A DNA stretch of 64,000 nucleotides from an uncultured Candidatus Kuenenia sp. (GTDB lineage: Bacteria; Planctomycetota; Planctomycetia; Pirellulales; UBA1268), in NCBI GenBank assembly GCA_964545915.1, contig CAZJHQ010000003.1, positions 25,582 to 89,581 of the forward strand, read 5' to 3'. Numbering within the stretch: position 1 is the first letter of the stretch; every line of letters begins with the position of its first letter. The notes under the pieces were generated by a model. It was not told the origin of the DNA and searched no databases. It worked only from the letters and a program-made list of their open reading frames with translations. This document shows positions 4,222 through 21,288 of this stretch, piece by piece. The position numbers were made by a program, and so were the translations under genes.

Positions 4222-6891
4222 TCAGGCGGCGCCGCCGGTCTCCCGCTTCCAGCGCCAGGCGGCAGCCGCGAGGAGCGCGAAGTTGAGGAGCAGAAACGCG
4301 AAGAACTCCGTCTGCCCACCCTGCCCGAAGCCATAGGAGTGCAGTCCGGCGCCGAGGAGGAAGTTGACGCCGTACCACGACATGCCGATCACGGCCGCGC
4401 CGATCACGCTCCCGGCCGCCAGGCCGAAGGTGCCGATCCAGCCGGCGTAGCGGCCATGGAGGATGGCGATGTAGGCCAAAAGCGACACCAGAGCCCAGAC
4501 CTCCTTCGGATCCCAGCCCCAGAATCGGCCCCAGGACACGTCGGCCCACAGGCCGCCGAGAATCGTGCCGGCCGCGAGGAGCAACACCGCGACCTGCATC
4601 GCCTTGTAGATGAAGCCCGCCAACGCCGTGCAGGCCTCCGGCGGCTTCCGCTTCCCCACGGCGCCGGCGCCGTAGCGGCCGAGCAGATAGTAGCCCAGCG
4701 ACAGGCAGCCGAGGCCCCAGGCCAGCGCGCCAGCGGCATAGCTCGACACGATCGTCAGCACGTGGATCGTGAGCCAGAAGTTGTCGCGCAGCACCGGCTG
4801 CAGCGGGCTGAACTGCTTGCCTGGAATGGGGAAAAACCAGGCGATGAACGTGCCCGCGAAGGCGACGGCCGTGACCACGAGGCCGAACGAGCGGCGGGCA
4901 TACGTCTCCGGCAACGCCGCGGCGAGATGGCCGCCGCGCCACGACAGCGGCACCACGCCGAGGCCGAGCAACGCGGCCAGGGCGAGCCGCGGCAGATACC
5001 AGGCGGCGGGGGCGAGCATGCCGAGGCCGACCAGCCAGACGACGAGGTTGTTGAGATTCGGCAGCGACCGATCGACGTCGGTCTGCGGCAGCAGGTTGAT
5101 GATCGTGCGGCCGCCGGCGGCGTAGGGAGCCATGGCGAGCACCCACACAACGAGGGCCGTGAGTGCGATTCGCGGCGCCAGCAACGCCCACGAGGCCAGG
5201 CTCCAGCCTCCCGCGCCGAGCAGGCTGCGGCGACGGTCGTCGAGCGGCGTCGCCTCGCCGGGAAGCAGCGCCCCGATGGGCGGCGGCAGGGCCGTCATCC
5301 GCCAGGCATCGGCCGCACCGCGGCGGCAGATCGGCGCCAACAGGAACCCGAGGCCGAGAATCGAGAGGAAGAATGGCACGTAGATCACGGTCTCGTACAT
5401 GTTCGTCACCGGTGCCCAGCCGGTGATCGCCACGCGCTGCGCGAAGGCGAAGGCCGTCCAGCCGATCTCGGCGGCGAGCAGCGCCACACCCAGCCAGAAC
5501 ATCGGCCCGCGGGCCCGGCCGAAGGCCAGCGCGAAGGCGAACAGCGCCAGCAGGCTCAACACCCAGGAGAGGCGGAACGGGTCGCTCTCGTTGTAGCGGA
5601 CTTCGCGGTGGGTGCTGCCCGGGGGCGGATAGGCCGTGTGCCGCAGGAGGTCGGCGTCGATCCGCTCGACCGGGAGCTTTGAACGCAGCGGTTCCACGCC
5701 CGCGCCGAGCGTTCGCAGGGCGGCGGCCAGCCGGCCACTGGCCGTCGCGGCATCGCGATCGCGGTTCTCGCCCGCCGGCTCCTTGGCGGCGGCGGTGAGC
5801 GCGGCGAAGGCGGATCGCACGTCCTCCACCGCCGTTTGTGGGTAAGCGGCGAGCACCTCGGATGGCGCGTCGAGGAGCGTGGCCAGGGCGATCCATGGTG
5901 GGGCGTCATCGTCGGCGTTGCGCTCCGCCTCCAATGGTCCCGCGTGGAGCGCGGGCACGACGAGGAGGCCGCCGCCATCGTCGTACAGCGCCTGGGAGAG
6001 CAGGCTGACCCGTTCGACGAGGCGAGACACGGTCCGCGTGGTGGTGGCGGGCATGTCGGGCACGGCGGCCAGCCGGCCGAGGGCGGCACCCAGGGCCGGA
6101 AGCTTCGCCGTTGCGTCGGCCGTGGCGAACCGCGTGGACTCTCCGACCGCCTCGGCGAGCCCGATGAAGGCGTCGTCCACGGCCCGCACCGCCGCGGCCG
6201 CCTCCTCGCTCCCGCTGGCCGCGACCCGACCGCGGGCCGCCCGCCACGCCCCGCTCGCCTGCTCCAAGAGCCGCACGAATCGCGAGCGGCCCATGTCGGT
6301 CGCCTCCGCCCGGAAGGTCAGCCGCCGCCAGGCCACGAACGCCCGCCACAACTGCTCGACTTTCGCATCCGCTCCCTCGAGGCGGAACTGGCCCCCCTGC
6401 GCCATCGCTTCCCGACGCCGCTCGTCGATAGCCATGAGCCGCGTTCGCAATTTCTCACAGTCTTCGACATCGGCGGGGGCCGCATGCTTGAGCCGCTCCT
6501 TGCCCGACGCGTCGGTGGTGAACAGCGGCAGGTCGAGGAGCGACCGCACTTCCTCGTGCTCGGCGGTCAGGAAGGGAATCTCCTGCCAGGCGGCCGGCCG
6601 GGCCAGCCAATCGAGAAGCAGCTCGTCGGGCTGCCAGCGGACGAGCGCCCCGCCCGGGCCGGTCGCCAGTTTCGGAGCCTGGGCGTGGCAGATCGTGTCG
6701 GCCATCCGCCGGGCGAACGTGTCGAGCGGCATGATGCGGCCGTCTTCGAGCACCGGAATCTCGCGCCAGTCGCGCAGGGCCGAGGACAGCCCCGGCTGCG
6801 GCAGCGCGGATGCGGGCACGGCCGTGATTTCAGGCGTGGCGGCGCCGGCGGTGACCGTCAGGGCGACGACGAGCAGAAAGGCGGGGCGCAT
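4222..6891 (-). CDS. ccsA: cytochrome c biogenesis protein CcsA/ResC with a long N-terminal periplasmic extension
   Basis: Signal peptide MRPAFLLVVALTVTAGA; W-rich heme-handling motif WADVSWGRFWGWDPKEVWA; polytopic C-terminal half. Confidence 0.9.
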   Translation of the reverse strand: MRPAFLLVVALTVTAGAATPEITAVPASALPQPGLSSALRDWREIPVLEDGRIMPLDTFARRMADTICHAQAPKLATGPGGALVRWQPDELLLDWLARPAAWQEIPFLTAEHEEVRSLLDLPLFTTDASGKERLKHAAPADVEDCEKLRTRLMAIDERRREAMAQGGQFRLEGADAKVEQLWRAFVAWRRLTFRAEATDMGRSRFVRLLEQASGAWRAARGRVAASGSEEAAAAVRAVDDAFIGLAEAVGESTRFATADATAKLPALGAALGRLAAVPDMPATTTRTVSRLVERVSLLSQALYDDGGGLLVVPALHAGPLEAERNADDDAPPWIALATLLDAPSEVLAAYPQTAVEDVRSAFAALTAAAKEPAGENRDRDAATASGRLAAALRTLGAGVEPLRSKLPVERIDADLLRHTAYPPPGSTHREVRYNESDPFRLSWVLSLLALFAFALAFGRARGPMFWLGVALLAAEIGWTAFAFAQRVAITGWAPVTNMYETVIYVPFFLSILGLGFLLAPICRRGAADAWRMTALPPPIGALLPGEATPLDDRRRSLLGAGGWSLASWALLAPRIALTALVVWVLAMAPYAAGGRTIINLLPQTDVDRSLPNLNNLVVWLVGLGMLAPAAWYLPRLALAALLGLGVVPLSWRGGHLAAALPETYARRSFGLVVTAVAFAGTFIAWFFPIPGKQFSPLQPVLRDNFWLTIHVLTIVSSYAAGALAWGLGCLSLGYYLLGRYGAGAVGKRKPPEACTALAGFIYKAMQVAVLLLAAGTILGGLWADVSWGRFWGWDPKEVWALVSLLAYIAILHGRYAGWIGTFGLAAGSVIGAAVIGMSWYGVNFLLGAGLHSYGFGQGGQTEFFAFLLLNFALLAAAAWRWKRETGGAA

Positions 6892-6924
6892 CGGGGTGCT
6901 TCCGTGGTTCGAGTGATCCGCTGG

Positions 6925-8949
6925 TCAGCGGCGGCGCGGTCCGAAGAAATAGGCCTTCATGTAGAACATCGTGAAAATGCCGATCACGATCAGGCCGCTC
7001 CCGGCATACTTCGTGCCGCGGCCGGGGTCGTGGTTGACGGTCAGCACCGAGGCCTCGAGCCGCTCGGGCTTCTCGCGGGCCGACGCCGTGAACCGCTCGT
7101 AGAGATCGTCTCCCGGGAGCCAGGGGCCCATGAAGCTCTCCTGGAAGAGACGGTAGGAGCGGCCCGTCAGCGGATCGGAGAAGTCGACCGGCGCGTTCAT
7201 CGTGATCGTCACCGGATCATTGACCAGCGGCCGGCCATCCTTGGTGAGGAACTCGACGATGCTGGAGAAGTGCGAGGCCTGGCTGGTGCCGGGATCGAGC
7301 CGCCGCTCGAAGTTGTCGAGCCGCACGTCGAAGCCCACGTCCACGGCCGTGGGCAGGAGCGTGATCGCGGCCGAGCGGGTCGGGCCCTCGACCACCTTGC
7401 GCTCGGCGGGGCCGGGCGGCTCCGCGATCGGCTGAATCGGCATCCCGGCGATCCAGAACTCTTCCGCCCGGCCGTCCACCGTGAGCCGCACCTTCGCGGC
7501 CCGGCGCTTGGCCGAGGGCGGCTTCGCCTTGTCGAAGGGGAGCGGCAGCGTGGCGATCTCGAGGGAGTCGGCGGGCAGGAAGCGATCGACCCGGAGCTCG
7601 AGCTTGGCCCGCGGCATCTCGAAGCCGGCCACTGGCCGGCCGTCGAGCGGCAGCACGCCCGCCGTCGCCGCCGGCGCCTGCCAGCGGCGGTAGAGCAGCG
7701 AAAACCCCGCGGCCGTGCGATCGGCCGTGACCGTGGAGGGGAGGCCTTTGGCCTGGATGACGTCGATCCGGCTCCGGGCCTTGCCCTGCATCCGCTCCGC
7801 GGCGTCGGCCGCCCGGCGCTCGATCCACAGCGTGCCGTAGACGCCCGTCCGCGGCGCGTGGATCGTGACCTCCGGGAGATCGGCGAGCACGACCATCTCC
7901 TCCGCCGGCCCATCCTTGCCGCGCCGCACCCGCACCCGCACGCCGGAAAGCCGCGGCTCGAAGTCGTGCACCTCGACGAACAGCGGCGCGGCGGCCGTCT
8001 CACCGGCGGGCGCGAACGCCGGCTTGCCGAGCACGTCGTCCACGAGCATGCGATGGGCCTTGCCGTCGCAGACGAGCACCAGTTGCCCCTTCTCCCCGTA
8101 GCCGAGCGCCGGCTCGGGCACGCCGGCCAGGAACGCCTCGGCCTCCGCGGCGGACCCGGCCTTCCAGAACACGACGGTGCCGCCGCCGGCCTGCTGGCGG
8201 TGCCGCACCTCCGTGGCCCGCAGCGGGTCGGGCTGCCAGGAGAGATCCACCGGAATCCACATCCTGCCCCCGGGCGCGCCATCGAAGGCATCGGTGCCCA
8301 GCCGCAGCTTCACGCCGGGGGCGAGGGCGGCGGACGAGTCGGCGTAGAAGTCGAGCACCTCCAGGCGGACGCCGTCGGCATCGTGAATGACGCCCGTGTC
8401 GCGTGGTGCGAGTCCCCACGGGAACCAGCTCCGCGTCGTGCCATATTCCGACCAGTTGAAGGGGCCGGAGCGAAACTCGATCGGGGCGACCACAGTGCGG
8501 TTTCCGCCGGTCTTGGACTCGAGATCGATGCGGAAGTGGTGCGCGTCCTCGTAGGCCAGGCTGCCCCGCTCCCCTTCCAGAAGCGGGATCTGGGCGTCGA
8601 TGCCGCCGCGCTGCGACATCAGGCAGCCGGCCAACAGCACGAGCAGGCCGATGTGGGTGATCACGAAGCCGGTCTGGTGACGCTTCCACGGGAAGCGGAT
8701 CGCGGCGGCGCAGAAGATGCTCACCGCCAGCAGGGCGTTGAGGAGCGTGAACCACCAGGTGTTCCAGACGCCGAACTTCACGGCCTCGGTGCCAAACCCG
8801 CTCTCCACGAACGTGCCCAGCCCGAGCACGACGGCCAGCAGGGCGATGAGCACGACGGCGAACTGGAGCGACGCGCAGAACTCGTAGGTCCCGAGCAGCG
8901 CCCGGACGACGGCCGGCTGGTCAGGCGTGGCGAGCCGGCGACGCGACAT
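6925..8949 (-). CDS. resB: cytochrome c biogenesis protein ResB/Ccs1
   Basis: N-terminal TM FAVVLIALLAVVLGLGTFVE, a large periplasmic domain and a C-terminal TM. Lies directly upstream of ccsA. ATG 8949 preferred; GTG 8994 is an alternative. Confidence 0.85.
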   Translation of the reverse strand: MSRRRLATPDQPAVVRALLGTYEFCASLQFAVVLIALLAVVLGLGTFVESGFGTEAVKFGVWNTWWFTLLNALLAVSIFCAAAIRFPWKRHQTGFVITHIGLLVLLAGCLMSQRGGIDAQIPLLEGERGSLAYEDAHHFRIDLESKTGGNRTVVAPIEFRSGPFNWSEYGTTRSWFPWGLAPRDTGVIHDADGVRLEVLDFYADSSAALAPGVKLRLGTDAFDGAPGGRMWIPVDLSWQPDPLRATEVRHRQQAGGGTVVFWKAGSAAEAEAFLAGVPEPALGYGEKGQLVLVCDGKAHRMLVDDVLGKPAFAPAGETAAAPLFVEVHDFEPRLSGVRVRVRRGKDGPAEEMVVLADLPEVTIHAPRTGVYGTLWIERRAADAAERMQGKARSRIDVIQAKGLPSTVTADRTAAGFSLLYRRWQAPAATAGVLPLDGRPVAGFEMPRAKLELRVDRFLPADSLEIATLPLPFDKAKPPSAKRRAAKVRLTVDGRAEEFWIAGMPIQPIAEPPGPAERKVVEGPTRSAAITLLPTAVDVGFDVRLDNFERRLDPGTSQASHFSSIVEFLTKDGRPLVNDPVTITMNAPVDFSDPLTGRSYRLFQESFMGPWLPGDDLYERFTASAREKPERLEASVLTVNHDPGRGTKYAGSGLIVIGIFTMFYMKAYFFGPRRR

Positions 8950-9018
8950 GGGGAGAAACTCTGGAGGAATGGTCGCAGATCGACCTGCGTCCACCCTTCA
9001 GTGTAGGACCGTGGCCGT

Positions 9019-10131
9019 TCACCGCCACCCGAAGGTTTCGGCCATGGCGTTCAGCAGCGGATTGGCCAGCGTCGGCCCTTCCGGCGCCCCGATCGTGCGG
9101 ACGAGGTCGTACATCACGAAGCCGCCGCACAGGAGCAGCAGCGAGCAGCACACCAGCCCGGTGATCTGCAGGGCGCTGAACGGCGTTTCGGTCGCGTACT
9201 CGCCGGGCTCGCCGCCGAGGATCACCGACGCACTGTCGCTCGTCAGGTCCTCCGAGAACGCGGAGCCCTCCCCTTCGATCGCCGCCCCGAAGAAGCTCGA
9301 GTCGCCCGTGTCCTCGGTGGCGATCACCACCGAGGCGCTCTCGTCGTCGACGGTGTCGCTGCCGAGTTGGAACTCGTCGCCGCCGAGTCCCGAGCCACCG
9401 CTGACCACCGACACGCCCGCCCCGCCGATCGCGGACCCGCCACCGAGGTCGATGCCGGACATCTGCACGTCACCGTCCTCGAGCGACAGGCCACTGTCGA
9501 GGGCGCCGGAGAGCGCCGCACCGGCGGCGGACAGGCCGGCAATGGATCCAAAATCGCCCGCCCCGCCATTGCCGCCGAGATCGATCGTCAGGCTGCTGCC
9601 GGCGGCCGAGCTGCCGCCCCTCGGGGCCGAGCCCCGGGCGAGTGATGGAGACGAGGCGCCGATGATCGATTCGAGCGCCAGGTCGTCTCCGTCGAGCACG
9701 CCGCCGCCCGTGTTGCCGACGACGACGTCCGCGCCGCCCAACGAGAGTCCCGAGGCGGCCGCCTGGCCGGCATCGCCGCGCACGATCGTCTGCGAGGCCC
9801 CTTTCGACTCCGGCAGATCCGTCGAGAAGATCGACTCTGTGCCGTCAAGCGGATCGCCCAGGGAGATCTCCTCGGCGGCGCCGCTGGCCGGCAAGTCGAG
9901 GTCGAGATCGAGCGCCAGGTCGTCCGACTGCGAGTTGTCGTCGCCGAGATCGCGGGCCACGCGGTCGATGTCGTCGGCCTTGAACTTCACCGTCGCGCCG
10001 TCGCGCATCGGAAAGAGCTTTTTCCGGTCGACGAGGCGATGGACCTCATCGACACTGACGCCCAACTGGCGGGCGGCTTCTTCGAGCGACAGAAATCTTC
10101 CGGCCATCACGGGAACGTCCCTCGGGGGCAT
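9019..10131 (-). CDS. HTH (excisionase/MerR-like) protein with acidic G/S/D-rich linker and C-terminal TM anchor
   Basis: LSLEEAARQLGVSVDEVHRLVDRKKLFP forms the HTH; the C-terminal TM is ITGLVCCSLLLLCGGFVMY. GGAGGAGG precedes the ATG at 10131. Confidence 0.75.
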   Translation of the reverse strand: MPPRDVPVMAGRFLSLEEAARQLGVSVDEVHRLVDRKKLFPMRDGATVKFKADDIDRVARDLGDDNSQSDDLALDLDLDLPASGAAEEISLGDPLDGTESIFSTDLPESKGASQTIVRGDAGQAAASGLSLGGADVVVGNTGGGVLDGDDLALESIIGASSPSLARGSAPRGGSSAAGSSLTIDLGGNGGAGDFGSIAGLSAAGAALSGALDSGLSLEDGDVQMSGIDLGGGSAIGGAGVSVVSGGSGLGGDEFQLGSDTVDDESASVVIATEDTGDSSFFGAAIEGEGSAFSEDLTSDSASVILGGEPGEYATETPFSALQITGLVCCSLLLLCGGFVMYDLVRTIGAPEGPTLANPLLNAMAETFGWR

Positions 10132-10315
10132 GGCAGCCTCCTCCCGGGATCGACAGGGGCCGCACCATCATTCTACGTCCAGCCGCCCCGGATCGTGCGA
10201 CCGGCACCCCCGGCACGACCGGACTCGGCAGGGGCTCGCCCGCCCGGCCGTCGCGCGGGGGGATTCCGCCGGTCCCCGCGCGAGCGGCGGGGGAACGGCT
10301 GGGAAACCCCGGGCC

Positions 10316-10729
10316 TCACCGCCGGGCCGGGGCCAGATCCAGCATCTTCTTGAGGTCGGCCGGCTTCGGCGCCTGAGCATTGAAGTCGCCCACCATGAGG
10401 TCGTAGCTGATGTCGCGGGTGCTCTTGAGCGTCAGCGCGCCCGTGGCGGCCTCCAGGTGATAGACCGCCGCATTCTTGAACTGTGGATCGATCACCAGGA
10501 GCAGGCGGCGGCTCTCGTCGAGCGGGCTGGCGGAGATCCACAGGCCGCCCGGGGCGACGGACTCCGGTGGGGCGGGCCGTTGGGCGGCGGTCTGGCCGCC
10601 CGCGAGCCAGAGCCAACCGGCGACGATGACGGCCGCCACGGCGAGCCCGCGACTGCAGGCGATCGAGTTCCAGGGGCGTTGCACGACGGATGCTCCGGAT
10701 CCTAGCGGCCCGTGGACAAAGCCCTCCAT
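10316..10729 (-). CDS. small secreted/anchored hypothetical protein
   Basis: Internal ATG at 10729 gives a hydrophobic segment LAVAAVIVAGWLWLAGG. Start choice is uncertain. Confidence 0.5.
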   Translation of the reverse strand: MEGFVHGPLGSGASVVQRPWNSIACSRGLAVAAVIVAGWLWLAGGQTAAQRPAPPESVAPGGLWISASPLDESRRLLLVIDPQFKNAAVYHLEAATGALTLKSTRDISYDLMVGDFNAQAPKPADLKKMLDLAPARR

Positions 10730-11094
10730 GGCCCCTGTCCACTTGGCCGACCGGTGGAAACGCCGAGGGTTTCCGCGGTCGGCATTCCTCGCATCCTGCT
10801 CGGGCAGACTTGTTCCACAGTCTGCGAAGCGGTCTGCGGGGAAGGAGGCGGAGCATAGGAAGGACGCAGGGGCGTCGCAAGGCTGCTCGTGTGCTGTGTC
10901 AATGCTGTGGAAGGAAGTCAGTGCGCGCTCGCCTGGCTTGCCTGGCTTCGCTCGTCGCCGGTGGCGAGCCGGTGTTTCGTCGTGCCGGATGTTTGGATTC
11001 AATCGCCTGCGCAAAGCGCACCGATAACGAGGGCGTGTCGTCGTCGGTCCGCGTCGTTCGCGGCGGCGATCGCAACCGTTTCGGGAGGTGTCCG

Positions 11095-12390
11095 GTGTCG
11101 AAGGTCAACGCCCTTTCCGCAGCCCTGCTCCGTTCGCCCCTGCTGTGGGGCGGCGCGCTGGCGTTCTGCTTCTTCGCGCTCATTCACGGCGGCGTGATCA
11201 CCGACGCGAACGTTCTCCGCTACCTCGCCGGCCACTGGGTTGAATACGTCGAGACGGCGATGTTCTGCGTGGGGCTCGCGGCCCTGGCCATCAAGGGCGT
11301 CGATTTGGCCCGGCAGCGCGCGCGGATGGGGGGCGAGCCGCTGCTGCCCGAGATTCCGCCCGGCGGCCAGGAGCCGGGCGAGGCCACGGCGCTCGTCGCG
11401 GCCTTGCCCCAGGGCGAGGCCGGCAACGACTACCTCGTCCGCCGGCTCCGCGAGGCTCTCGACCTCGTCATCCGCACCGGCTCGGCGGATGGCCTCGAGG
11501 ATCATGCCAAGTATCTCTCCGATCTCGACGCTGCCCGAGCCGCCCAGGGCTATGGCCTGGTGCGGTTCGTGATCTGGGCGATCCCGATCATGGGCTTTCT
11601 CGGCACGGTGATCGGCATCACGGTGGCGATCGCGAGCCTGTCGCCGACGCAATTGGAGAACATCTCCGGCGTGGTGGCGGGCCTGGGCACGGCCTTCGAC
11701 ACCACGGCCACGGCCCTCGCCCTGTCGATGGTCCTGATGTTCGTGCAGTTCGTCGTCGACCGCTCCGAGACGAAACTGCTCGCCGAGGTGGACGAGCAGG
11801 CCTGGACGGCGTTGGCCGGCCGGTTTCAGTCGCTATCCGGCGACGAGGGGACGGCGCTGGCGGTCGCCCGGCTTGGCGAGACGCTCGGCCGCGGCTCCGC
11901 CCGGCTGCTCGAGTCGCAGGAGCAGGCGTGGAAGTCGCTCGAGCGGACGGCCGCGGCCGGTATGCGGCAGCTGCTCGACGAAGCCGGCGAGCGGATTCAG
12001 GCCTCGCTTTCGCGATCGCTGGACGTGAGCCTTGGCCGGTGGGCCGAGTCGCTCGCCCAGGCCCACGACACGGTCGCCGCCCGCCGCGAGGCCCGCTGGG
12101 CCGAGGCGGCCGAGTCGCTGGCCGCGGCCGTCCAAGGCCTGGAACGGCAGCAGGATGCGCTGGCCGGCCAGACCGCCCTGCTTGGCGAGGTCGTGGGTGC
12201 GACCCGCGACATCGCGACTCTGGAGCGGGCGCTCGATGCCAACCTCACCGCATTGGCGGCGACGGGCCGGTTCGAGGAGACGCTCGCCACCCTGGCCGCC
12301 GCCGTGCAACTGCTCGCCGCCCGCACGACGGCCGCCGATCACCGCACCGTGGACCTCCAGGCGGCCCGTCGGGTCGGAAAGGCCGCATGA
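11095..12390 (+). CDS. MotA/TolQ/ExbB-family proton channel protein with ~170-aa helical C-terminal tail
   Basis: GTG 11095 preceded by GGGAGG. Four TM segments. Family signatures IMGFLGTVIGITVAIASL and GLGTAFDTTATALALSMVLMFV. The tail is rich in A/L/E/R heptad-like sequence. Confidence 0.85.
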   Translation: MSKVNALSAALLRSPLLWGGALAFCFFALIHGGVITDANVLRYLAGHWVEYVETAMFCVGLAALAIKGVDLARQRARMGGEPLLPEIPPGGQEPGEATALVAALPQGEAGNDYLVRRLREALDLVIRTGSADGLEDHAKYLSDLDAARAAQGYGLVRFVIWAIPIMGFLGTVIGITVAIASLSPTQLENISGVVAGLGTAFDTTATALALSMVLMFVQFVVDRSETKLLAEVDEQAWTALAGRFQSLSGDEGTALAVARLGETLGRGSARLLESQEQAWKSLERTAAAGMRQLLDEAGERIQASLSRSLDVSLGRWAESLAQAHDTVAARREARWAEAAESLAAAVQGLERQQDALAGQTALLGEVVGATRDIATLERALDANLTALAATGRFEETLATLAAAVQLLAARTTAADHRTVDLQAARRVGKAA

Positions 12391-14435
12391 GCCGTGCCCG
12401 CCCCGCATCGGGGGCCTCGATCTCGCTGTTCCCGTTCCTGGCCGTGCTTCTGTGCACGATGGGGGCGTTGCTCGTCCTGCTCGTGCTCTTCAGCCGCTCG
12501 GCCAAGGAGTCGGAGCGGGCCGCGACGGAGACGGCGCAGCGGCAGCGGGCGGACGACCTGCGGCTCGAGCAGGAGCAGCTCGCCTGGCGGCTGGCCCAGC
12601 TCCAGGACGTGCGCGACCGCACGCTCGCCGACCTGTCGCGGGCCCGGATGCAGCTGGCGGGCGTCGAGGACGACAACCGCACACTGGCCGACGAGCTCGA
12701 CGGCCTGGAGCGGGTGGCGGCGGCGCTGGCCGCGGACGCGAAGCCCGACCCGGCCGACGCCGTGACGCTGGCGGAACTGGACCGCAGGCTGAAGAACGCC
12801 CGCGAGTCGCTCGATGCAGCGAAGCGCGACCAGGCCAAGAAGCCGCCCGCCTACGCGGTGGTGCCCTACGAGGGTGTCAACGGCACCCATCGCCGCCCCC
12901 TGTATATAGAGTGCTGCATCGACGGCGTGTTCCTGCAGCCGGAGGGGATTCGGCTCGGCCCTGGCGACTTCGAGGGCCCCCCCGGCCCAGGCAATCCGCT
13001 GGCCAGCGCGCTGCGGGCCGCCCGCGAGCACATTGCCAAGGGGCCGCGCGAGTCGGGGGACCCGGCCGCGCAGCCCTACCCGCTGCTGCTCGTGCGGCCA
13101 TCGGGCGTGATGGCCTACTATGCCGCCCGCGAGGCGATCCAGTCATGGGGCAGCGAGTTCGGCTACCAGTTCGTGGACGAAGACTGGACGCTCGACTATC
13201 CCCCCCGTGATCCGGTGCTCGCCGACGCGGAGATGCGGGCCGTGGAGGAGTCGCGGCGCCGCATCGCCTGGCTTGGCGAGGTGCGGAAGTCGCGGCCGGC
13301 CAAGCCGGTGCAGCAGTACCGCGCCGCCACCACGCGCGGCGGCGTCGTGGCCGATGGCGGCCCGAGCGTGCTCGGCGACCAGTCGCGGTTCGATTGGACC
13401 GAGGAGCAGGCGGCTGGAGCCCAGCGCGGCGGGCCGGGCCGTGGCTTCGCGGCCGCCGCTGGCGCCGCGCGGCGTGAAGGCGGTCTCGTGAGCGGCGCCG
13501 CGTCGGGGGGGGATGCGATCCTCGGGGCCGGCGGTGGCGACGCTCGTGGCTTCGGTGGCAACGGGACCGGTCAAGCCGGCGGCGGCACGGGTGGCGGTGC
13601 CGGCGACACTGCATCCGGCTCGCACGCGAGCGATGCGGGGGCAGCGGGATCCGGCGGCCCGAACTCGGGCGGCAACGGCCTCGGCGATCGGTACGCGGGG
13701 CCGTCGAAGTTCTACGCGGCACATGGCGGCGATCATCCGGCAGGCGGCGATGCGTCCGCGGCCGGTGGGAGTGCGGCGGGGGGGGCATCCGGCGGGCAGT
13801 CGCCGGCGGGCGGGGCCACGGGCAACGCGGCGACCGGCGCGCCGGGGGCCGGTTCCCTTGCTGCCGGGAATGGCGCCGGCGGCCCGCAGACAGGGAAAGC
13901 GGGCGGCGCCGGCGGCTCCGCGGCGGGACCGGCGATGCCGGGGCTCGCCACGCCGGGCGGCGCCGCGGGAGGGATGCTGGAAGGGGCGAGCGACGCGCCA
14001 GCGGGCGGCTCGGCCACCGCGTCGTTGGCGGGCAAACGCGGCAGCAACTGGGCGAGCCTCGCGACCCATGACCGCCCGATCCCGCTGCGGCGACCGATCC
14101 GCCTGGAGTGCGCGGCGGATGAGTTTCGCATCCTTGACGACGGGGGGGGCCGCGTGGAGACCCGCATCCCGCTGGGGGCCGACACGGCCGACTCGATCGA
14201 CCTGCTCGTGACCGCCGTGCATGCGAAGGTGAATCGCTGGGGCATCGCTGGCGACCGCATGTATTGGAAGCCGGAACTCGTGCTCTCCGAAGCGCCCGAC
14301 GGCCGGGCCCGGCGCGAGGATCTGGAACGCCTGCTGGTCGACAGCGGCCTGGAGACCAGGCCGGCCGCGGGCCGCAGCACGGTGCGGCCGCTGCCCCCGA
14401 TCGAGCGCACCGGCGCCCTGCCGACCAAGCGGTGA
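12387..14435 (+). CDS. ExbD/TolR-like single-pass membrane protein (682 aa): coiled coil, two globular domains, G/A-rich linker
   Basis: ATGA overlap with the upstream gene. N-terminus ISLFPFLAVLLCTMGALLVLLVLF aligns with the TolR/ExbD TM (INIVPLLDVLLVLL), but Ala replaces the conserved Asp. Confidence 0.75.
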   Translation: MSRARPASGASISLFPFLAVLLCTMGALLVLLVLFSRSAKESERAATETAQRQRADDLRLEQEQLAWRLAQLQDVRDRTLADLSRARMQLAGVEDDNRTLADELDGLERVAAALAADAKPDPADAVTLAELDRRLKNARESLDAAKRDQAKKPPAYAVVPYEGVNGTHRRPLYIECCIDGVFLQPEGIRLGPGDFEGPPGPGNPLASALRAAREHIAKGPRESGDPAAQPYPLLLVRPSGVMAYYAAREAIQSWGSEFGYQFVDEDWTLDYPPRDPVLADAEMRAVEESRRRIAWLGEVRKSRPAKPVQQYRAATTRGGVVADGGPSVLGDQSRFDWTEEQAAGAQRGGPGRGFAAAAGAARREGGLVSGAASGGDAILGAGGGDARGFGGNGTGQAGGGTGGGAGDTASGSHASDAGAAGSGGPNSGGNGLGDRYAGPSKFYAAHGGDHPAGGDASAAGGSAAGGASGGQSPAGGATGNAATGAPGAGSLAAGNGAGGPQTGKAGGAGGSAAGPAMPGLATPGGAAGGMLEGASDAPAGGSATASLAGKRGSNWASLATHDRPIPLRRPIRLECAADEFRILDDGGGRVETRIPLGADTADSIDLLVTAVHAKVNRWGIAGDRMYWKPELVLSEAPDGRARREDLERLLVDSGLETRPAAGRSTVRPLPPIERTGALPTKR

Positions 14436-14457
14436 CCGCCGTCCCCGGAGCCCTGCC

Positions 14458-15450
14458 ATGCCCCGCCCCAAGCCCGAAGACATCGGCTCCGCCGGACAGG
14501 ACTCGTTCCTCGACGTCGTCACGAACATCGTCGGCATCCTCATCATCCTCGTGATGGTGATCGGGGGCCGCGTGCAGCAGGTCATGCTCCGGCCGCCGCA
14601 GCCCGCCGCCGAGACGTCCGCGATCGAGAAGGCCATCGAGGATCTGGACGAGACGGTGGCCTCGACCGAGGGCGAGATCGACCAGCTCCAGGCGCAGGCC
14701 CGCACGGTGGCCACGGCCGCCGCGTTTGCAGCCGACGCCCGCATCCAGCTGGCGACCGCCGTGTCGGCGGCGAAGGTGAGCATCGACCGCTGGAAGCAGG
14801 CCAGCGATGCCACGAAGGTGGCCGCGGCCGAAGCGGCGGCCCGGCGCCGCCAGCTGGAGGAGGAGATCCGCACGTGTACGCTCGAAGCCGAGGGGCTCGC
14901 CCATGTGCCCGCCACGACCAAGGAGGTGCTCGCCTATCCGACGCCGATCGGGCGGACGGTGAACGGCGAGGAGATCCACTTCCGGCTCGCCGGCGGACGG
15001 ATTGCCTACATTCCCCTCGAGGAACTCTTCGAGCTTGCCAAGAGCCACACCCAGCGGCAGGGCTCGTCGATCGCCCAGCTCGCCAACCGCGTGGAGACCG
15101 TGGGGCCCGAGCAGGGCTTCGCGCTCGACTACGTGATCGAGGCCAAGATCGACCAGGCCCGCGGGCAGGTGCTGATCCGCTCCCGCGAGTGGGTCGTGCG
15201 GCCGCAGCAGGTCGGTATCGGTGAGACGGCCGACGAGGCGCTCGGCAGCGGGTCGCGCTTCCGTCGCGTCCTCTCGGGGGCGAAGCCGGAAACGACCGTC
15301 ACGCTGTGGTGCTACCCGGACAGTTTTCCGGAATATCGGCGGCTCCGCGAAGAACTGCACCGCCTCGGGATCCCATCGGCCGGCCGGCCGATGCCGGAGG
15401 GGGCTCCGATCGGCGGGTCCACCGAGGGGAGCAAGAGCGTCGTGCAGTGA
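14458..15450 (+). CDS. ExbD/TolR-like single-pass membrane protein (330 aa) with coiled coil
   Basis: N-terminus DSFLDVVTNIVGILIILVMV keeps the conserved Asp-Val of the ExbD/TolR TM helix. Starts 22 nt after the previous stop. Confidence 0.75.
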   Translation: MPRPKPEDIGSAGQDSFLDVVTNIVGILIILVMVIGGRVQQVMLRPPQPAAETSAIEKAIEDLDETVASTEGEIDQLQAQARTVATAAAFAADARIQLATAVSAAKVSIDRWKQASDATKVAAAEAAARRRQLEEEIRTCTLEAEGLAHVPATTKEVLAYPTPIGRTVNGEEIHFRLAGGRIAYIPLEELFELAKSHTQRQGSSIAQLANRVETVGPEQGFALDYVIEAKIDQARGQVLIRSREWVVRPQQVGIGETADEALGSGSRFRRVLSGAKPETTVTLWCYPDSFPEYRRLREELHRLGIPSAGRPMPEGAPIGGSTEGSKSVVQ

Positions 15451-15601
15451 TCCCGGGCCGGTCTTTCCGGATCACCGGGAACGCGGCGTTCGCGCCGTCG
15501 CCTGCCAGCGACGGCCGCCGCTCCGCCTCCGATTGACTCGGAAAATAGACGCCTGTACACTCATCTCATGCGAGGGTCGAGTGTGATCCGGCGCGTCGAG
15601 G

Positions 15602-16507
15602 GTGGCGATGAACACATACCGCGTTTTCGAGGAACTCAAGGCATCGTTGGGTGAGCCCGCCGCCAAGGCGCTCGTCGAGACCCTCGGCGGAATGTTCGAG
15701 GAACTCAAGAACACCGTCACGAAAGAGGACTTCCGGCTCCTCGGGGAGTCCATCGACGCCAGCGTGTCGCGGCTCGATGGCGCCATGATTCGGCTCGCCG
15801 AGGCCCAGACCCGGACGGAGGAGCGCCTCAACGAGCTTGCCCAGGCTCAGACCCGGACGGAAGCAAGAATTGAGGAACTTGCCGAGGGGCAAGGGCGTCT
15901 GTTCGAGGCCCAGGCCCGGACGGAGGAACGTCTCAACGAGCTTGCGCAGGCCCAGACTCGGACGGAGGCGCGCCTCAACGAGCTTGCGCAGGCGCAGACT
16001 CGGACGGAGGAACGTCTCAATGAGCTTGCGCAGGCGCAGACTCGGACGGAGACAGAAGTCAAGTCGCTCGCGGTGGCGTTGGAGCGGCTCACGATCCGCA
16101 CCGACGCCGTCGTCGGCCGCACCTTCGAAATCCAGTTCCGGGACCGGCTCACGGCCTATCTGGGGCGGTTCCTCCGCCGCGGCAAGCTCCTGGCCAATGA
16201 CGAGCTGCTCGACCTGATCGAGCCGAAGGTGACGGAACGAGAGGCGGACGATTTCCTGCGGGCCGACGCCGTGGCGTCCGGATTGGTGGACGGCGTCAAG
16301 AGCTACGTCGTGGTCGAGGTCTCTTCCACCGGCGACATCGACGACATCCTTCGGGCCCAGCGGCGCGCCGACGTTCTCCGCAAGGCGGGCCTGGCGGCCA
16401 TTCCGCTGGTCGCCTGCGATGCGATTTCGCCCGAGTCGTTGGCCTTCGCCAAGCTTCGCGAGGTGCGGGTGTGGTGCAACGGTTCAATGGTCGAGGCGGC
16501 GGCCTGA
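15602..16507 (+). CDS. coiled-coil protein with 14-aa tandem repeats and a C-terminal globular domain (possible PD-(D/E)XK-like fold)
   Basis: Six units of [14 protein letters not shown]-type repeat. The C-terminus ...[10 protein letters not shown]...[15 protein letters not shown] resembles a D...EVK nuclease-fold core with Ser in place of Lys. Confidence 0.7.
15803..16052 (+). repeat. in-frame 42-nt tandem repeat (about 6 units)
   Basis: GCCCAGACYCGGACGGAGGARCGYCTCAAYGAGCTTGCSCAG repeated; one unit is interrupted by a longer variant. Confidence 0.85.
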
Positions 16508-16556
16508 CCGCCAGGCCGCGCCGACGCTGATCGATCCGGCCGACGGGTGGTGACCT

Positions 16557-19490
16557 TCAGCGTGCTGGTGCTTCGGCCCAGGCGGAGACGGGCACGCAAC
16601 TGCAAAACAGATTGCGGTCGCCGTGGACGTTGTCCACGCGGCCCACCGGCGGCCAGTATTTCGACCGCTTGAGCGTGGCGACGGGAAACGCCGCCGTCTC
16701 GCGCGGATAGGGATGCCGCCAGTCGGTCAATGCGACCGCGGCCGCCGTGTGCGGGGCGTTCTTGAGCGGGTTGTCGTCCTGCGGCCACTCGCCCGCCTCG
16801 ATGCGGGCGATTTCGCCGCGGATCGCGATCATCGCCTCGATGAAGCGGTCGAGCTCGGCCAACGGCTCGCTCTCCGTCGGCTCGACCATCAGCGTGCCGG
16901 GCACCGGGAAGCTCAGGGTCGGCGCGTGGAAGCCGTAGTCGATGAGCCGCTTGGCCACGTCTTCGGCCGTCACGCCGCTGGTCTCCTTGAGCGGCCGCAG
17001 GTCGAGGATGCACTCGTGGGCCACGCGGCCGTTCGCGCCGCTATACAGCGTGGGGAAGTGGCCGCGGAGTCGCACGCTCACGTAGTTGGCCGCGAGGATC
17101 GCGGCCTCGGTGGCGTGCTTTAGGCCCTCGGGCCCCATCATCCGGCAATACATCCAGCTGATCGGCAGCACCGCGGCGTTGCCCAGCGGCGCCGCCGATA
17201 CGGCGCCCACGGCCCCCGGCGGCAGGCCGCCCGTGGCGTGGCCGGGCAGGAACGGCACGAGGTCCTCGACCACGCACACCGGGCCCACGCCCGGCCCGCC
17301 GCCGCCGTGCGGGATGCAAAAGGTCTTGTGGAGGTTGAGGTGGCTGACGTCCCCACCGAAGCGGCCCGGCGCCGCCAGGCCCACCAACGCATTCATGTTC
17401 GCCCCGTCCACGTACACCCGGCCGCCGTGGCGGTGCACGATGGCGCACAGTTCCCCGATCGCCGTCTCGAACACGCCGTGCGTGCTCGGGTAGGTGATCA
17501 TCACCGCGGCCAGGCGGTCGGCATGCTCCCGGCACTTGGCCTCGAGGTCGGCGAGGTCGACGTTGCCGGCCGCATCGCAGGCGGTGACCACCACCTGCAG
17601 GCCGACCATCTGGGCGCTGGCGGGATTCGTGCCGTGGGCGCTGGCCGGAATCAGGCAGATGTCGCGGTGGCCTTGGCCGCGGGACCGCTGCCAGGCCTGG
17701 ATCGCGAGGAGGCCGGCATACTCCCCCTGGCTGCCGGCGTTGGGCTGGAGGCTGATGCCGGCATAGCCCGTGGCGGCCGTGAGCCACCCGCGGAGCTGGC
17801 GTTCGAGAACGGCATAGCCCTCGCGCTGGTCCGCCGGGGCGAAGGGGTGCACATGGGCGAACTCGGGCCAGGTGATCGGGATCATCTCGCTGGTGGCGTT
17901 GAGCTTCATCGTGCAGCTGCCCAGCGGGATCATGCTGCGGTCGAGGGCCAGATCCTTGTCGGAAAGCCCGCGGATGTACCGCAGCATCGCCGTCTCGGAG
18001 TGGTGCGAGTTGAAGACCGGATGGAGCAGGAGATCGCTTGTCCGCCGCAAGGCCGGCGGGATGAGCGGTTCCACGCCCCGGTCGAACGCGGTCCCGTCGG
18101 GCACCGCCTGGCCGGCCGGCGCGAACACGCCCCACAGCCGCGTGAGATCGTCGCGGGTGGTCGTCTCATCGAGCGTGATTGCCAGCGTGTGCGGATCGAG
18201 CGTGCGGAGATTCATCCCCTGCTCGCGGGCCCGGGCCGCGAAGGCCGCCGTGCGGTCGCCCGTGTCGAGGCTCACGGTGTCGAAGGCGTGGGCGTTGCGC
18301 ACCCGCACGCCGAGCCGCTTCAGGCCCTCCGCCAGGATGGACGCATAGGCCGCCACCCGTCCCGCGATCCGGGCCAGCCCGGCGGGCCCGTGGTAGACGG
18401 CGTACATGCTCGCCACGACGGCCGGCAGCACCTGGGCGGTGCAGATGTTGGAGGTCGCCTTCTCGCGGCGGATGTGCTGCTCGCGGGTCTGGAGGGAGAG
18501 CCGGTAGGCGGGCGCACCGTGGGCGTCGATGCTCACGCCGACGAGCCGGCCCGGCAGCGACCGCTTCAGTTCGTCGCGACAAGCCAGATAGGCGGCGTGC
18601 GGGCCGCCGCAGCCCATCGGCATGCCGAACCGCTGCGTGCTGCCGACGACGATGTCGGCTCCCCACTCACCCGGCGGCACCAGCAGCACCAGGGCCAGCG
18701 GGTCAGCTGCGACGCAGAGCAATGCCTGCCGCGCATGCACGCCATCGGCGAGGCCCCGCCAGTCGTCGACGGCGCCGTCGGTGGCCGGATACTGCACCAG
18801 CGCCCCGAAGCAGTCGCGGCTCTCGATCAGGCTGCCGACGTCGCCGACCACGACCTCGATGCCCAGCGGCGCGGCCCGCGTGGCCAGCACCTCGAGCGTC
18901 TGCGGATGGCAGCGGCGGTCGGCGAGGAACACGGTGCTCTTCGACCCCGCCGTCCGGCGGGCGAGCGTCATCGCCTCGGCGGCCGCAGTCGCCTCGTCGA
19001 GCATGGAGGCATTGGCGATCGGCATGCCGGTCAGGTCGCAGACCATCGTCTGGAAGTTGACCAGCGCCTCCATCCGCCCCTGGCTGATCTCCGCCTGGTA
19101 GGGCGTGTAGGCCGTGTACCAGGCGGGATTCTCCAGGATGTTCCGCAGGATCACGCCGGGCGTGAACGTGCCGTGGTAGCCCTGGCCGATGAAACTCTTG
19201 AGCAGCCGGTTGCGGGCCGCGATGCCCTGCAGCTCGGCAAGGGCGGCGGCTTCCGTGATCGCCGGCGGCAGGTCCATGCGGTCGTGCCGGGCGATGCCTG
19301 CCGGCACGATCTCGGCGATCAGCGCCGCGCGGGTGGTCGCGTTGACGGCGTCGAGCATGTGTCGCTCGTCGGCGGCGGACAGGCCGACGTGGCGGCCTTC
19401 GAACTCGGCAGGCTGCTCGAGCACTGCCAGCGGCAGGGCGGCGGAAGCGGCATCACGAACGGCCGCTGGGGACGCGAGGAGGTCGGACAT
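16557..19490 (-). CDS. gcvP: glycine dehydrogenase (decarboxylating), single-chain P protein
   Basis: [28 protein letters not shown] and the PLP-lysine region [22 protein letters not shown] at 19490 ([10 protein letters not shown]). Confidence 0.95.
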
Positions 19491-19538
19491 GGAAGGGCTC
19501 CACGAGCGGGGCGTCGGCGGTGCCGACACCGGGAACCC

Positions 19539-19697
19539 TGTTGTCCTGGAACCTGAGAGATTCGCCGCGGACCACGCCCGCGGTTTGCCCCTTCGGTGGA
19601 CGCATGCCATGCGGCCCGCGTCGCTCTCCAACAGTTGTTTCGTCAGTCCTTTTGCCTGAGCGTTCTGCCTTCGGCGGCCTTGCGGCTCTCTCCTGAC
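19539..19697 (-). promoter_or_regulatory. tandem glycine riboswitch
   Basis: Minus-strand aptamer 1: GUCAGGAGAGAGCCGCAAGGCCGCCGAAGGCAGAACGCUCAGGCAAAAGGACUGAC (P1 GUCAG/CUGAC). Aptamer 2: UGUUGGAGAGCG...CCACCGAAGGGGCAAACC...CUCUCAGGUUCCAGGACAACA (P1 UGUUG/CAACA). Lies about 50 nt upstream of the gcvP ATG. Confidence 0.9.
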
Positions 19698-20109
19698 GCC
19701 CAAAGTCTAGTCGTCCGCGCCGGGAACGACAACCGCGAGCCTCGGGCTCGGTGACCGTTGCGATCGCGGAGACGTGGTCGTTCGACGCGGTGCGGAGCTG
19801 CTGCCCCTTCGGGTATGATCTCCCGCTACGGAAGCGACGGCGTCTCGAAAGGCTCGGTCGGGGCTACCGCTGCCCGTCGAAAAACCGTTCATGGCCTTTT
19901 CCCAATTGATTCGGCTGCATGAAACCTCCCAGGCTTCGACTCGCTCGAGGCTGCGTGCGGTTCGCCATTCCTGGCTGCGCCGGTCAGCCACGCCGGCTGT
20001 CGGGCATGGGCAACCCCGCCCCGACCGTCTTTGCCCAGGCGCCGTTCGTGCGCGAGGCTCAAGTGTGAGCCGTATTGCGCGCCGCATTGTTTCGAGATCG
20101 CGGTGACCC

Positions 20110-21288
20110 ATGATGCGTAAGTCCATCCACTGCATCGGCTTGTTGGTGGCGGCGCTCGTGCCGGCTGCCGCCTGCGTCGGCCGCGAGCCGTTCACCCTCG
20201 CGGAAGGCGACCGCGTCGTCTTCCTGGGCAACGGCGTCATCGAGCAGGAACACGCCTGCGGCGAACTCGAAACCAGGCTCACCAGGCGCTGGCCGCAGGC
20301 TCACGTGATCTTTCGCAACATGGGCTGGAGCGGCGATACCGTCCGGGGGATGGCCCGCACCGGGGGCTACGAGCAGCCCGATGGCTTTGCCCGGCTGCTC
20401 AAGGAAATCAACACCCAGAAGCCGACGGTGATCTTCGTCGGCTATGGCCTCAACGAGTCCTTCGCCGGCCCGTCGGGGCTCGCGGGCTTCGACGGCGATT
20501 ACCGCAAGCTCGTCGACCAGCTCGCGCCGCTTGGGGCCAGGCTGGTGCTGCTCTCACCGACATGGCACGAAGACCTGGGCCGGCCCCTGCCCGACCCGGC
20601 CGGGCACAACAAAGACATCGAAACCTACGCCGCGGCGATCGCACGGATCGCGGGTGAGCGGCAGGCGGCCTATGTGGACGTCTTCGCGCCGCTGCGTGAC
20701 GCCAAGGCTCGTCGCCCGACGCCGCTGACGACCAACGGCATCCAGCTCAACCCCCGGGGCTATGCGGAGTTCGCCGCCGCCATCGAGCACGGGCTGGGGG
20801 TGGCTCCGCCGCCCTGGGAGATGCAGCTCGGCGATCGGGGCGTGAAGGCGACGGGCTGCACCGTCAAGCAACAGGCGCCGGCAGGCGGGGGCTGGAAGGT
20901 CGTCGTCGTCGACGACGTGGTGCGGGTTCCGGGAGAGCCGCTGCGGTTCACATGGGCTGGTGCTCGCGGCGGCGACTACGAGATCGCATGCGACGGCGAG
21001 ATCGCGGCTACCGTGCCGGCGGCGAAGCTGGCCGCTGGCGTCGTCCTGGAGGGGTCGATCGTCTGTCCGGAAGGCGAGAAGCTGCGCCGGGCGATCGTCA
21101 AGAAAGGTGAGCTCTTCTATCGCCGGTGGCGTCCGTTCAACGACCACTCGCGACACTGGAACTACATCCGCGGAGACTTCGCGCTCTACGACGAAGAAAT
21201 CGCGGCACTCGAGAAGACGATCGCGGAACTCCGCGTGCCGCGGGAGCGAACCATCGAGGTCCGACCAGTAAAGAGGAACTCACGATGA
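20110..21288 (+). CDS. SGNH/GDSL-fold protein, catalytic residues apparently substituted
   Basis: Signal/lipobox-like MMRKSIHCIGLLVAALVPAAAC. SGNH blocks FRNMGWSGDT and GYGLNES are present, but block I reads FLGNGV and block V reads NGIQLN. Confidence 0.75.
   Translation: MMRKSIHCIGLLVAALVPAAACVGREPFTLAEGDRVVFLGNGVIEQEHACGELETRLTRRWPQAHVIFRNMGWSGDTVRGMARTGGYEQPDGFARLLKEINTQKPTVIFVGYGLNESFAGPSGLAGFDGDYRKLVDQLAPLGARLVLLSPTWHEDLGRPLPDPAGHNKDIETYAAAIARIAGERQAAYVDVFAPLRDAKARRPTPLTTNGIQLNPRGYAEFAAAIEHGLGVAPPPWEMQLGDRGVKATGCTVKQQAPAGGGWKVVVVDDVVRVPGEPLRFTWAGARGGDYEIACDGEIAATVPAAKLAAGVVLEGSIVCPEGEKLRRAIVKKGELFYRRWRPFNDHSRHWNYIRGDFALYDEEIAALEKTIAELRVPRERTIEVRPVKRNSR

Follow-up and report, generated by a model that had tools for sequence, protein, structure and literature searches.

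A widespread MotA/ExbB-family gene trio of Planctomycetota with a candidate single-aspartate heterodimeric axle

We analysed a 64,000-nucleotide stretch of DNA (hereafter the window) from contig CAZJHQ010000003.1 (positions 25,582 to 89,581; assembly GCA_964545915.1), which is titled as an uncultured Candidatus Kuenenia sp. and placed by GTDB in the Pirellulales. Three co-directional genes in the window, called here gene 1, gene 2 and gene 3, encode a membrane protein of the MotA/TolQ/ExbB family and two large bitopic proteins that belong to no curated family (Table 1). The genes are tightly linked, as an earlier note on this DNA had described: the TGA of gene 1 and the ATG of gene 2 overlap as ATGA (12387-12390), and 22 nucleotides (14436-14457) separate gene 2 from gene 3. 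The peptides quoted in that note, SFLDVVTNIVGILIILV in gene 3 and LFPFLAVLLCTMGALLV in gene 2, are also found as written. The two bitopic proteins differ at one position of the membrane helix, where gene 3 has an Asp and gene 2 an Ala, and the trio may encode a proton-driven envelope motor in which only one of two axle helices carries the proton-binding residue.

Table 1. Features of the trio and its surroundings, in window coordinates
Feature	Position	Strand	Description
Shine-Dalgarno-like GGGAGG	11083-11088	+	6 nucleotides 5' of the gene 1 GTG; direct sequence reading
Gene 1	11095-12390	+	GTG start at 11095, TGA at 12388-12390; 431 amino acids; MotA/TolQ/ExbB-family channel subunit
Gene 1 channel core, residues 121-228	11455-11778	+	PIMGFLGTVIGI and AFDTTATAL motifs
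Gene 1 C-terminal tail, residues 229-431	11779-12387	+	from composition
Gene 2	12387-14435	+	682 amino acids, bitopic; ATG start
Gene 2 membrane helix LFPFLAVLLCTMGALLVLLVLF	12426-12491	+	Ala19 at the position of the ExbD/TolR proton-binding Asp
Gene 2 stalk helices, residues 36-151	12492-12839	+	AlphaFold2 model; continuous with membrane helix
Gene 2 domain D1, residues 155-300	12849-13286	+	AlphaFold2 order bbb-a-b-a-bb-a (b, strand; a, helix)
Gene 2 disordered linker, residues 325-548	13359-14030	+	predicted local distance difference test score (pLDDT) <50; 33% Gly, 24% Ala
Gene 2 distal domain D2, residues 565-660	14079-14366	+	AlphaFold2 pLDDT ~89-95
Gene 3	14458-15450	+	330 amino acids, bitopic
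Gene 3 membrane helix DSFLDVVTNIVGILIILVMV	14500-14574	+	conserved Asp19
Gene 3 long helix, predicted periplasmic, residues 51-148	14608-14901	+	AlphaFold2 pLDDT ~73-94
Gene 3 alpha/beta domain, residues 165-330	14950-15447	+	AlphaFold2 pLDDT mostly 81-97
Gene 4	15602-16507	+	coiled-coil protein, then unclassified ~130-residue C-terminal domain
ResB	6925-8994	-	flanking gene, confirmed
GcvP	16557-19703	-	flanking gene, confirmed

The DNA of the window is about 70% G+C and has long open reading frames (ORFs) in every frame. Because DNA of this composition typically gives spurious long ORFs, how long an ORF is does not by itself mark it as a gene. The three genes have many relatives. A word-indexed search with gene 3 found 1121 at E<=1e-3, an exhaustive HMMER scan found 1321 clusters at 50% identity (504 with E<=1e-30), and 1201 relatives of gene 2 were found. 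Gene 3 proteins are 56-96% identical across metagenome-assembled genomes (MAGs) of Pirellulales, and the start of gene 1 is shared, its orthologues opening with the same MSK(V/L)NALSAALL. From sequence, we conclude that genes 1 to 3 are real and not artefacts of high G+C content. Spurious ORFs of up to 1056 amino acids run across real genes that lie in a different frame or on the other strand, at window 5836-9006 (forward strand) and in many further frames from 7000 to 21000.

Gene 1 matches the Pfam family MotA_ExbB (PF01618) over residues 121-228, scoring 40 bits (E 3.9e-10) where the cutoff is 22.9, and its orthologues in loci L084 and L091 score 46-56 bits on the same model. Weak sequence matches to ExbB and PomA were found in the PDB. 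Hydropathy gives four hydrophobic segments, at residues 17-35, 54-72, 162-180 and 203-221. When gene 1 and its distant orthologues are aligned with TolQ and ExbB of E. coli (K-12 record NC_000913.3), P164, T171, A205 and L208 are invariant. The threonine at 171 belongs to GT(V)xGI (GTVxGI), a motif common to TolQ and ExbB, and the TTA motif of gene 1 aligns with the second pore threonine of these proteins. As far as sequence can tell, gene 1 encodes a true MotA/TolQ/ExbB-family protein that has retained its channel threonines. Beyond the channel core is the unusual tail that the earlier note had pointed out along with the family membership and the four hydrophobic segments; it had put the tail at about 170 residues, and the length is 203. 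The tail is 24% Ala, 14% Leu, 10% Arg and 9% Glu and has no Pro, a composition that suggests it is helical, and it is presumably cytoplasmic. Orthologues of just 30-37% identity keep a tail of 200-270 residues, and they share the conserved terminus ..HLLxAR..KAA.

Genes 2 and 3 each encode one hydrophobic segment, in both cases at residues 17-35. The N-terminal family profiles of the two proteins align in register, with A19 opposite D19 (hhalign, E 4e-4). Compared with a reference profile of ExbD/TolR made from 12 annotated proteins (E. coli K-12 and diverse plasmid records), gene 3 has its best local alignment at DSFLDIV on INVTPLIDVML, with D19 on the Asp, and gene 2 places SLFPFLAVL on the same stretch, with A19 on the Asp. 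Neither alignment is significant (E 0.017-0.19, probability <=3%; the best value for gene 2 is 0.017). The ExbD/TolR-type start ascribed to both proteins in the earlier note thus holds up as a single N-terminal helix in each that aligns best in register with the pore-helix Asp, and we regard the likeness as consistent register and not as demonstrated homology.

A census of site 19 found the Asp/Ala asymmetry, first remarked on in the window, to be real and family-wide. A strict motif detects the gene 3 Asp in 253 of 284 family sequences, and the 29 entries that do not match are mostly truncated at the N-terminus or carry the Asp within a variant motif; the exceptions at this site are Asn in P0013, P0373 and P0383 and Val in P0387. 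In gene 2 the site is Ala in 233 sequences, Val in about five, and Asp only in locus L087, where the helix reads FPFLDVLL, a TolR-type motif complete with its Asp. We suspect that this Asp is ancestral, and we count it in favour of a heterodimeric axle. The helix is also the most conserved part of gene 2. Among 34 sequences, conservation is 90% or more at 15 of 19 consecutive positions (14-32), where the mean column identity is 41%. This conservation extends to all faces of the helix and fits a helix that is packed all round better than a one-faced peripheral anchor. Read directly, residues 12-36 of gene 2 contain no His and no motif of the Ser-His-Leu-Ser (SHLS) type. Such a motif is involved in binding of the TonB/TolA helix to the outside of the motor ring (PMC12204202).

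Both partners fall outside the known families. Searched as full proteins against Pfam, NCBIfam, PADLOC, PHROG and PDB sequences, genes 2 and 3 gave scattered coiled-coil matches only. Isolated N-terminal and domain fragments of both had no Pfam match at E<=10, ExbD/TolR (PF02472) included, and diverse family members (41 of gene 3 and 34 of gene 2) put through Pfam gave coiled-coil noise but neither ExbD/TolR nor VWA. Single-sequence and profile searches of the PDB likewise returned coiled coils only. The GldL and GldM models of Pfam and NCBIfam matched none of the three proteins, and neither these libraries nor the 50 Foldseek matches listed revealed a TonB_C or TolA C-terminal domain in gene 2. 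A regular-expression scan for the ExbD-type motif across the window and about 0.9 Mb of related loci was negative, and we therefore think that no canonical ExbD partner is encoded locally. The trio is not described in the literature that we searched or in any of the curated libraries, in keeping with the initial impression that its architecture was not that of a described system. Within a known motor family, the partner families and the proposed single-Asp heterodimeric arrangement are new.

AlphaFold2 monomer models of genes 2 and 3 are confident outside the gene 2 linker. In gene 2, helices at residues 15-117 and 122-151 (pLDDT about 72-96 over residues 21-150, lower around 111-130) lead to the first of two globular domains, D1 and D2, which are homologous to each other (hhalign probability 91%, E 9e-7). 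Gene 2 therefore carries a duplicated domain, its two copies split by a glycine-rich disordered linker. The length of this linker differs among lineages; for example, gene 2 of locus L090 has 1053 residues compared with 682 in the window, and nearly all of the excess is linker. In gene 3 (mean pLDDT 84), a membrane helix at residues 15-39 is followed by a long helix and a single alpha/beta domain. The C-terminus of this domain (residues 310-330) reads RP(L/M)PxGxPIGGSxxGSKSxxQ and is nearly invariant even at about 35% identity, which points to a peptide used for docking or to the donation of a strand to a partner.

Foldseek searches of both models against the PDB produced nothing with E<=1e-3. 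Weak matches were to uS11, RuvC and sugar-kinase folds for gene 2 and to RNase-H-like folds for gene 3, and the top weak matches (uS11, RuvC, integrase or PIWI, and sugar-kinase domains) share an RNase-H-like order of strands and helices, a faint hint that the predicted domains might have an RNase-H/uS11-like topology. ExbD, TolR, TonB, TolA, OmpA-like and vWA structures are absent from the 50 Foldseek matches listed for each model, and comparison of the globular domains with the ExbD/TolR profile gave E values of 0.1-0.7. The proposal in the earlier note that these segments begin like ExbD periplasmic domains thus finds no support in Pfam, profile-profile comparison or Foldseek. The gene 3 domain is not significantly similar to the gene 2 domains by hhalign (E 0.05-0.09), and the local alignments land on the same strand-helix element.

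When one genome per GTDB species was scanned, relatives of gene 3 turned up in at least 568 species genomes. We kept 80 loci, from 80 different MAGs, and the module occurs once in each. Most of these loci are labelled Pirellulales, Planctomycetaceae, Planctomycetia or Planctomycetota, and a minority Candidatus Kuenenia, Planctomicrobium, Chitinophaga or Chitinophagaceae. The relatives of gene 2 whose source is named all come from Pirellulales, Pirellulaceae, Thermoguttaceae, Planctomycetales, Planctomycetaceae, Planctomycetia or Planctomycetota. The order gene 1-gene 2-gene 3 on one strand is kept in 51 of the 53 loci whose sequence extends 4.2 kb or more upstream of gene 3, and it holds in relatives that are just 32-40% identical in gene 3 (L084, L089, L091 and L094); the co-conservation that the earlier note had wanted checked is thus borne out. 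The genes next to the trio vary by lineage and are ordinary metabolic or translation genes.

Some of the kept loci deserve separate mention. Loci L006, L021, L027, L050, L069, L070, L076 and others hold Pirellulales-type trios that are 57-76% identical in gene 3, and the titles of such contigs (Candidatus Kuenenia, Chitinophaga, Chitinophagaceae) look like taxonomic mislabels of the bins. In L090 (4714-8987), a 73-residue ORF and a divergent gene of 392 residues lie upstream where the MotA-family gene would be expected; its longer gene 2 linker is rich in Gly and Ser, and FHA-domain genes lie about 5 kb downstream. In L086 (3915-8990), an FHA-domain adenylate/guanylate cyclase (607 residues) lies directly upstream, in the usual position of the MotA-like gene. 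In L087 (4516-8972) the usual pattern is reversed: gene 2 keeps the Asp, and the gene 1 homologue, shortened to 356 residues, no longer has GT(V)xGI and TTA.

The segments that link membrane and globular domains have matching lengths in the two partners. We counted as stalk the residues between the Asp/Ala site and the conserved motif that comes first in the globular domain. For gene 2 and gene 3, respectively, the lengths are 140 and 142 in the window, 141 and 144 in L001, 140 and 141 in L087, 145 and 140 in L090, 149 and 142 in L086, 181 and 169 in L094, 189 and 189 in L089, 205 and 194 in L091, and 280 and 289 in L084. The two lengths co-vary (Pearson r = 0.99, Spearman rho 0.84) across these nine lineages, which are phylogenetically non-independent, and at least four distinct length classes are matched between the proteins. 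Wherever a proline-rich insert after the membrane helix has been gained in one protein, it has been gained in both. Such covariation is what a parallel, length-matched heterodimeric stalk would predict. Together, the matched position of the membrane helices, the covariation of the stalks and the conservation of the gene 2 helix on all faces support a heterodimeric axle.

Our preferred interpretation, to which we give a probability of roughly 0.55, is that the trio encodes a housekeeping envelope machine of Planctomycetota that is driven by the proton motive force, belongs to the MotA/ExbB/TolQ 5:2 superfamily and has an asymmetric, heterodimeric axle with a single Asp. Gene 1 would form the channel ring in the membrane, presumably a pentamer by analogy, with its helical tail of about 200 residues projecting into the cytoplasm, where the tails may bundle or dock a cytoplasmic partner as do those of ZorA and GldL. 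One helix from gene 2 and one from gene 3 would sit inside the ring as the axle, and the proton-carrying Asp would come from gene 3 alone, giving a proton path by way of Asp19 and the threonines of gene 1. Outside the membrane, about 100-135 residues of each protein could lie alongside one another and form a helical stalk, matched in length and roughly 15-20 nm long, capped by unclassified alpha/beta domains, three related-looking ones in all. The flexible Gly-rich tether of gene 2 could extend D2 to the cell wall or the outer membrane. Proton flow might then turn or ratchet the axle against the ring and so perform mechanical work on a distal partner.

Several points weigh against this interpretation. 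Canonical 5:2 motors alternate two Asp, and we know of no experimentally characterised precedent for a single-Asp axle. Genes 2 and 3 are not statistically recognisable as ExbD/TolR, whether by Pfam (no match), by hhalign (E 0.017-0.7) or among the Foldseek matches listed. In loci L086 and L090, genes 2 and 3 are present as a pair with no MotA gene next to them, and gene 3 of L090 has Asn in place of the Asp. The gene 1 homologue of L087 has a degenerate channel core, so the pair can be maintained alongside a motor that looks weakened. Lastly, the relatedness of the nine lineages in the stalk comparison counts on the same side.

The main rival of the heterodimeric axle is an arrangement like that of the Tol and Ton systems, in which a homodimer of gene 3 supplies an axle with two Asp inside the gene 1 ring, and gene 2 is a TolA/TonB-like transducer outside the ring, extending to the outer layers through its linker and distal domain. 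This arrangement would preserve the canonical two-Asp mechanism, would accommodate the missing Asp of gene 2, and draws on the three-part outline that gene 2 shares with TolA and TonB: an N-terminal anchor, a helical and disordered span and a small C-terminal globular domain. However, the gene 2 helix lacks the His and the SHLS-type motif, it is conserved on all faces and not on one, and its PFL(A/D)VLL motif is ExbD/TolR-like, with the Asp itself present in L087. There is also no TonB_C or TolA match in Pfam or among the Foldseek matches listed, and the matched helix position and the covariation with the gene 3 stalk argue for side-by-side pairing from the membrane outward. We consider the arrangement unlikely on balance, and it is the one that we would take most seriously after our own.

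It is also conceivable, and we judge it less likely still, that genes 2 and 3 form a periplasmic scaffold independent of any motor, a bitopic coiled-coil heterodimer like PilN/PilO or of the FtsB/FtsL type, with the MotA-like protein as an accessory or regulator. The loci that trouble the motor are those that speak for such a scaffold: the pairs of L086 and L090 that have no MotA gene beside them, the Asn for Asp in gene 3 of L090 and two other sequences, and the degenerate gene 1 core of L087 beside intact genes 2 and 3. That the globular domains are the most distinctive of the conserved parts would also agree with it. Nevertheless, the Asp is present in nearly all gene 3 sequences checked, the conservation of the gene 2 helix is extreme, and 51 of 53 loci have a MotA gene next to the pair, in many cases with a stop codon that overlaps the following start; in L086 and L090, the MotA gene could lie elsewhere in the genome.

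A Zorya-like anti-phage system, in which a tailed MotA-like sensor-motor and its membrane partners would signal to a nuclease-like gene downstream, is very improbable and is rejected because the fourth gene is not conserved. Gene 4, which the earlier note had raised as a possible nuclease-fold protein following the trio and as grounds for a loose analogy with Zorya, has no homologue in the related loci examined and has its own promoter-like site (15533-15561). As a candidate fourth component it was rejected on both counts, non-synteny and promoter, and the analogy falls away with it, the family tests being negative as well. What remains in favour of Zorya is the long C-terminal tail of gene 1, as in ZorA, and weak PADLOC matches to ZorA (E ~1e-5), which are confined to the shared MotA core; the NCBIfam ZorA2 model gives 8.5 bits against a cutoff of 700. 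Against it, genes 2 to 4 match no ZorB, ZorC, ZorD or ZorE model, and neither a peptidoglycan-binding domain nor a PHROG match was found. The module, present once in each of 80 MAG loci, is inherited phylum-wide in housekeeping contexts of uniform composition, and its occurrence in at least 568 species genomes is not the patchy, island-borne distribution of a defence system. Searches of gene 4 itself in Pfam, PADLOC and PHROGs gave coiled-coil-type matches only. Gene 4 also contains a tandem repeat of 42 nucleotides (14 residues) at 15906-16051, with 3.5 copies and a 90% match.

The proposed heterodimeric-axle motor can be compared with several known systems. Like ExbB-ExbD or TolQ-TolR, this trio has a channel subunit of the same Pfam family with the channel threonines kept, bitopic partners with an N-terminal helix and (in gene 3) an Asp at equivalent depth, and adjacent, translationally coupled genes. 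It differs in having two distinct partners of 330 and 682 residues, where ExbD and TolR have about 140, in having one Asp, in periplasmic domains that do not have the ExbD/TolR fold, and in a gene 1 with four hydrophobic segments and a tail of 200 residues. In contrast to Ton and to Tol-Pal, there is no TonB, TolA, TolB or Pal partner near the trio. AglR-AglQ-AglS of Myxococcus gliding is similar in that two different TolR-like partners are encoded along with a single MotA/TolQ-like protein. However, AglQ and AglS are small, canonical members of the TolR family, whereas genes 2 and 3 are large, differ from each other in the Asp and go unmatched by the model of that family.

GldL-GldM and PorL-PorM of gliding and type IX secretion offer a working analogy, a tailed ring subunit around a dimer with an elongated shaft that spans the periplasm. 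The trio has no sequence or Pfam relation to GldL/GldM, and its periplasmic domains differ. The axle formed by GldM is homodimeric and relies on Arg/Glu pairs and not on Asp. ZorA-ZorB shares the MotA-family subunit with a long C-terminal helical tail, but the trio has no Zorya effector genes and no peptidoglycan-binding partner of the ZorB type, and it is found phylum-wide in housekeeping contexts, whereas Zorya is patchy and on islands.

The closest published idea is the proposal, made in 2025, of TolQ-like rings with heterologous pairs in which an ExbD-like pore helix is fused to vWA domains (PMC12204202), and we count this parallel in favour of our interpretation. In both cases, a MotA/TolQ-family gene without a canonical tolR stands beside a heterologous pair of large proteins, each of which opens with an ExbD-like pore helix, and periplasmic cargo is fused to the axle (PMC12204202). 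The trio differs in having no vWA domain by Pfam or among the Foldseek matches listed, and in having long coiled-coil stalks followed by unclassified alpha/beta domains. In addition, both helices of the vWA pairs are reported to carry Asp, compared with just one in the trio, and the vWA pairs are found mainly in Proteobacteria and Verrucomicrobia, the trio in Planctomycetota (PMC12204202).

If the heterodimeric axle exists, its consequences would reach beyond this phylum. The 5:2 motors that have been solved (MotAB, PomAB, ExbBD, TolQR, GldLM and ZorAB) all have, to our knowledge, a symmetric, homodimeric axle, and mechanistic models rest on two alternating ion-binding sites. A phylum-wide and apparently heterodimeric axle with a single Asp would be a ready-made test of the two-site model, and the two-Asp alternation of the solved motors would not be obligatory. 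The trio also brings two large protein families that are new to Pfam, NCBIfam and PDB, one of them with more than 1300 clusters at 50% identity.

The cell biology of Planctomycetota includes division without FtsZ, an enlarged periplasm and the uptake of macromolecules, and the machinery behind these still awaits identification. The trio is a concrete, conserved and putatively energy-coupled envelope complex for this phylum. We speculate, and regard it as doubtful at present, that an asymmetric 5:1:1 motor with a single-Asp axle and a heterodimeric coiled-coil shaft of about 15-20 nm is the missing proton-powered envelope machine of Planctomycetia. Such a machine might serve the remodelling or constriction of outer layers in FtsZ-independent division, or uptake across the enlarged periplasm. 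A 2025 review of Planctomycetota makes no mention of a MotA, ExbB or TonB system (PMC12673574).

The surroundings of the trio in the window are those of a housekeeping region and not of a defence island, as had been supposed from the flanking ResB and GcvP genes; a gene for a GDSL lipase was also confirmed among the flanks, and the base composition is uniform at about 70% G+C, with no island signal. Two genes on the reverse strand (window 9019-10131 and 10316-11014) are divergent from the trio. The product of one is an HTH_17 DNA-binding protein whose middle is of low complexity and which has a hydrophobic segment at its C-terminal end; that of the other is a small protein in which conservation is confined to the C-terminal ~90 residues. 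Both are absent from the vicinity of the trio in L084, L089, L091 and L094 and are syntenic with it in 46-47 related loci, the distant L087 included, and the pair is a possible lineage-specific regulator.

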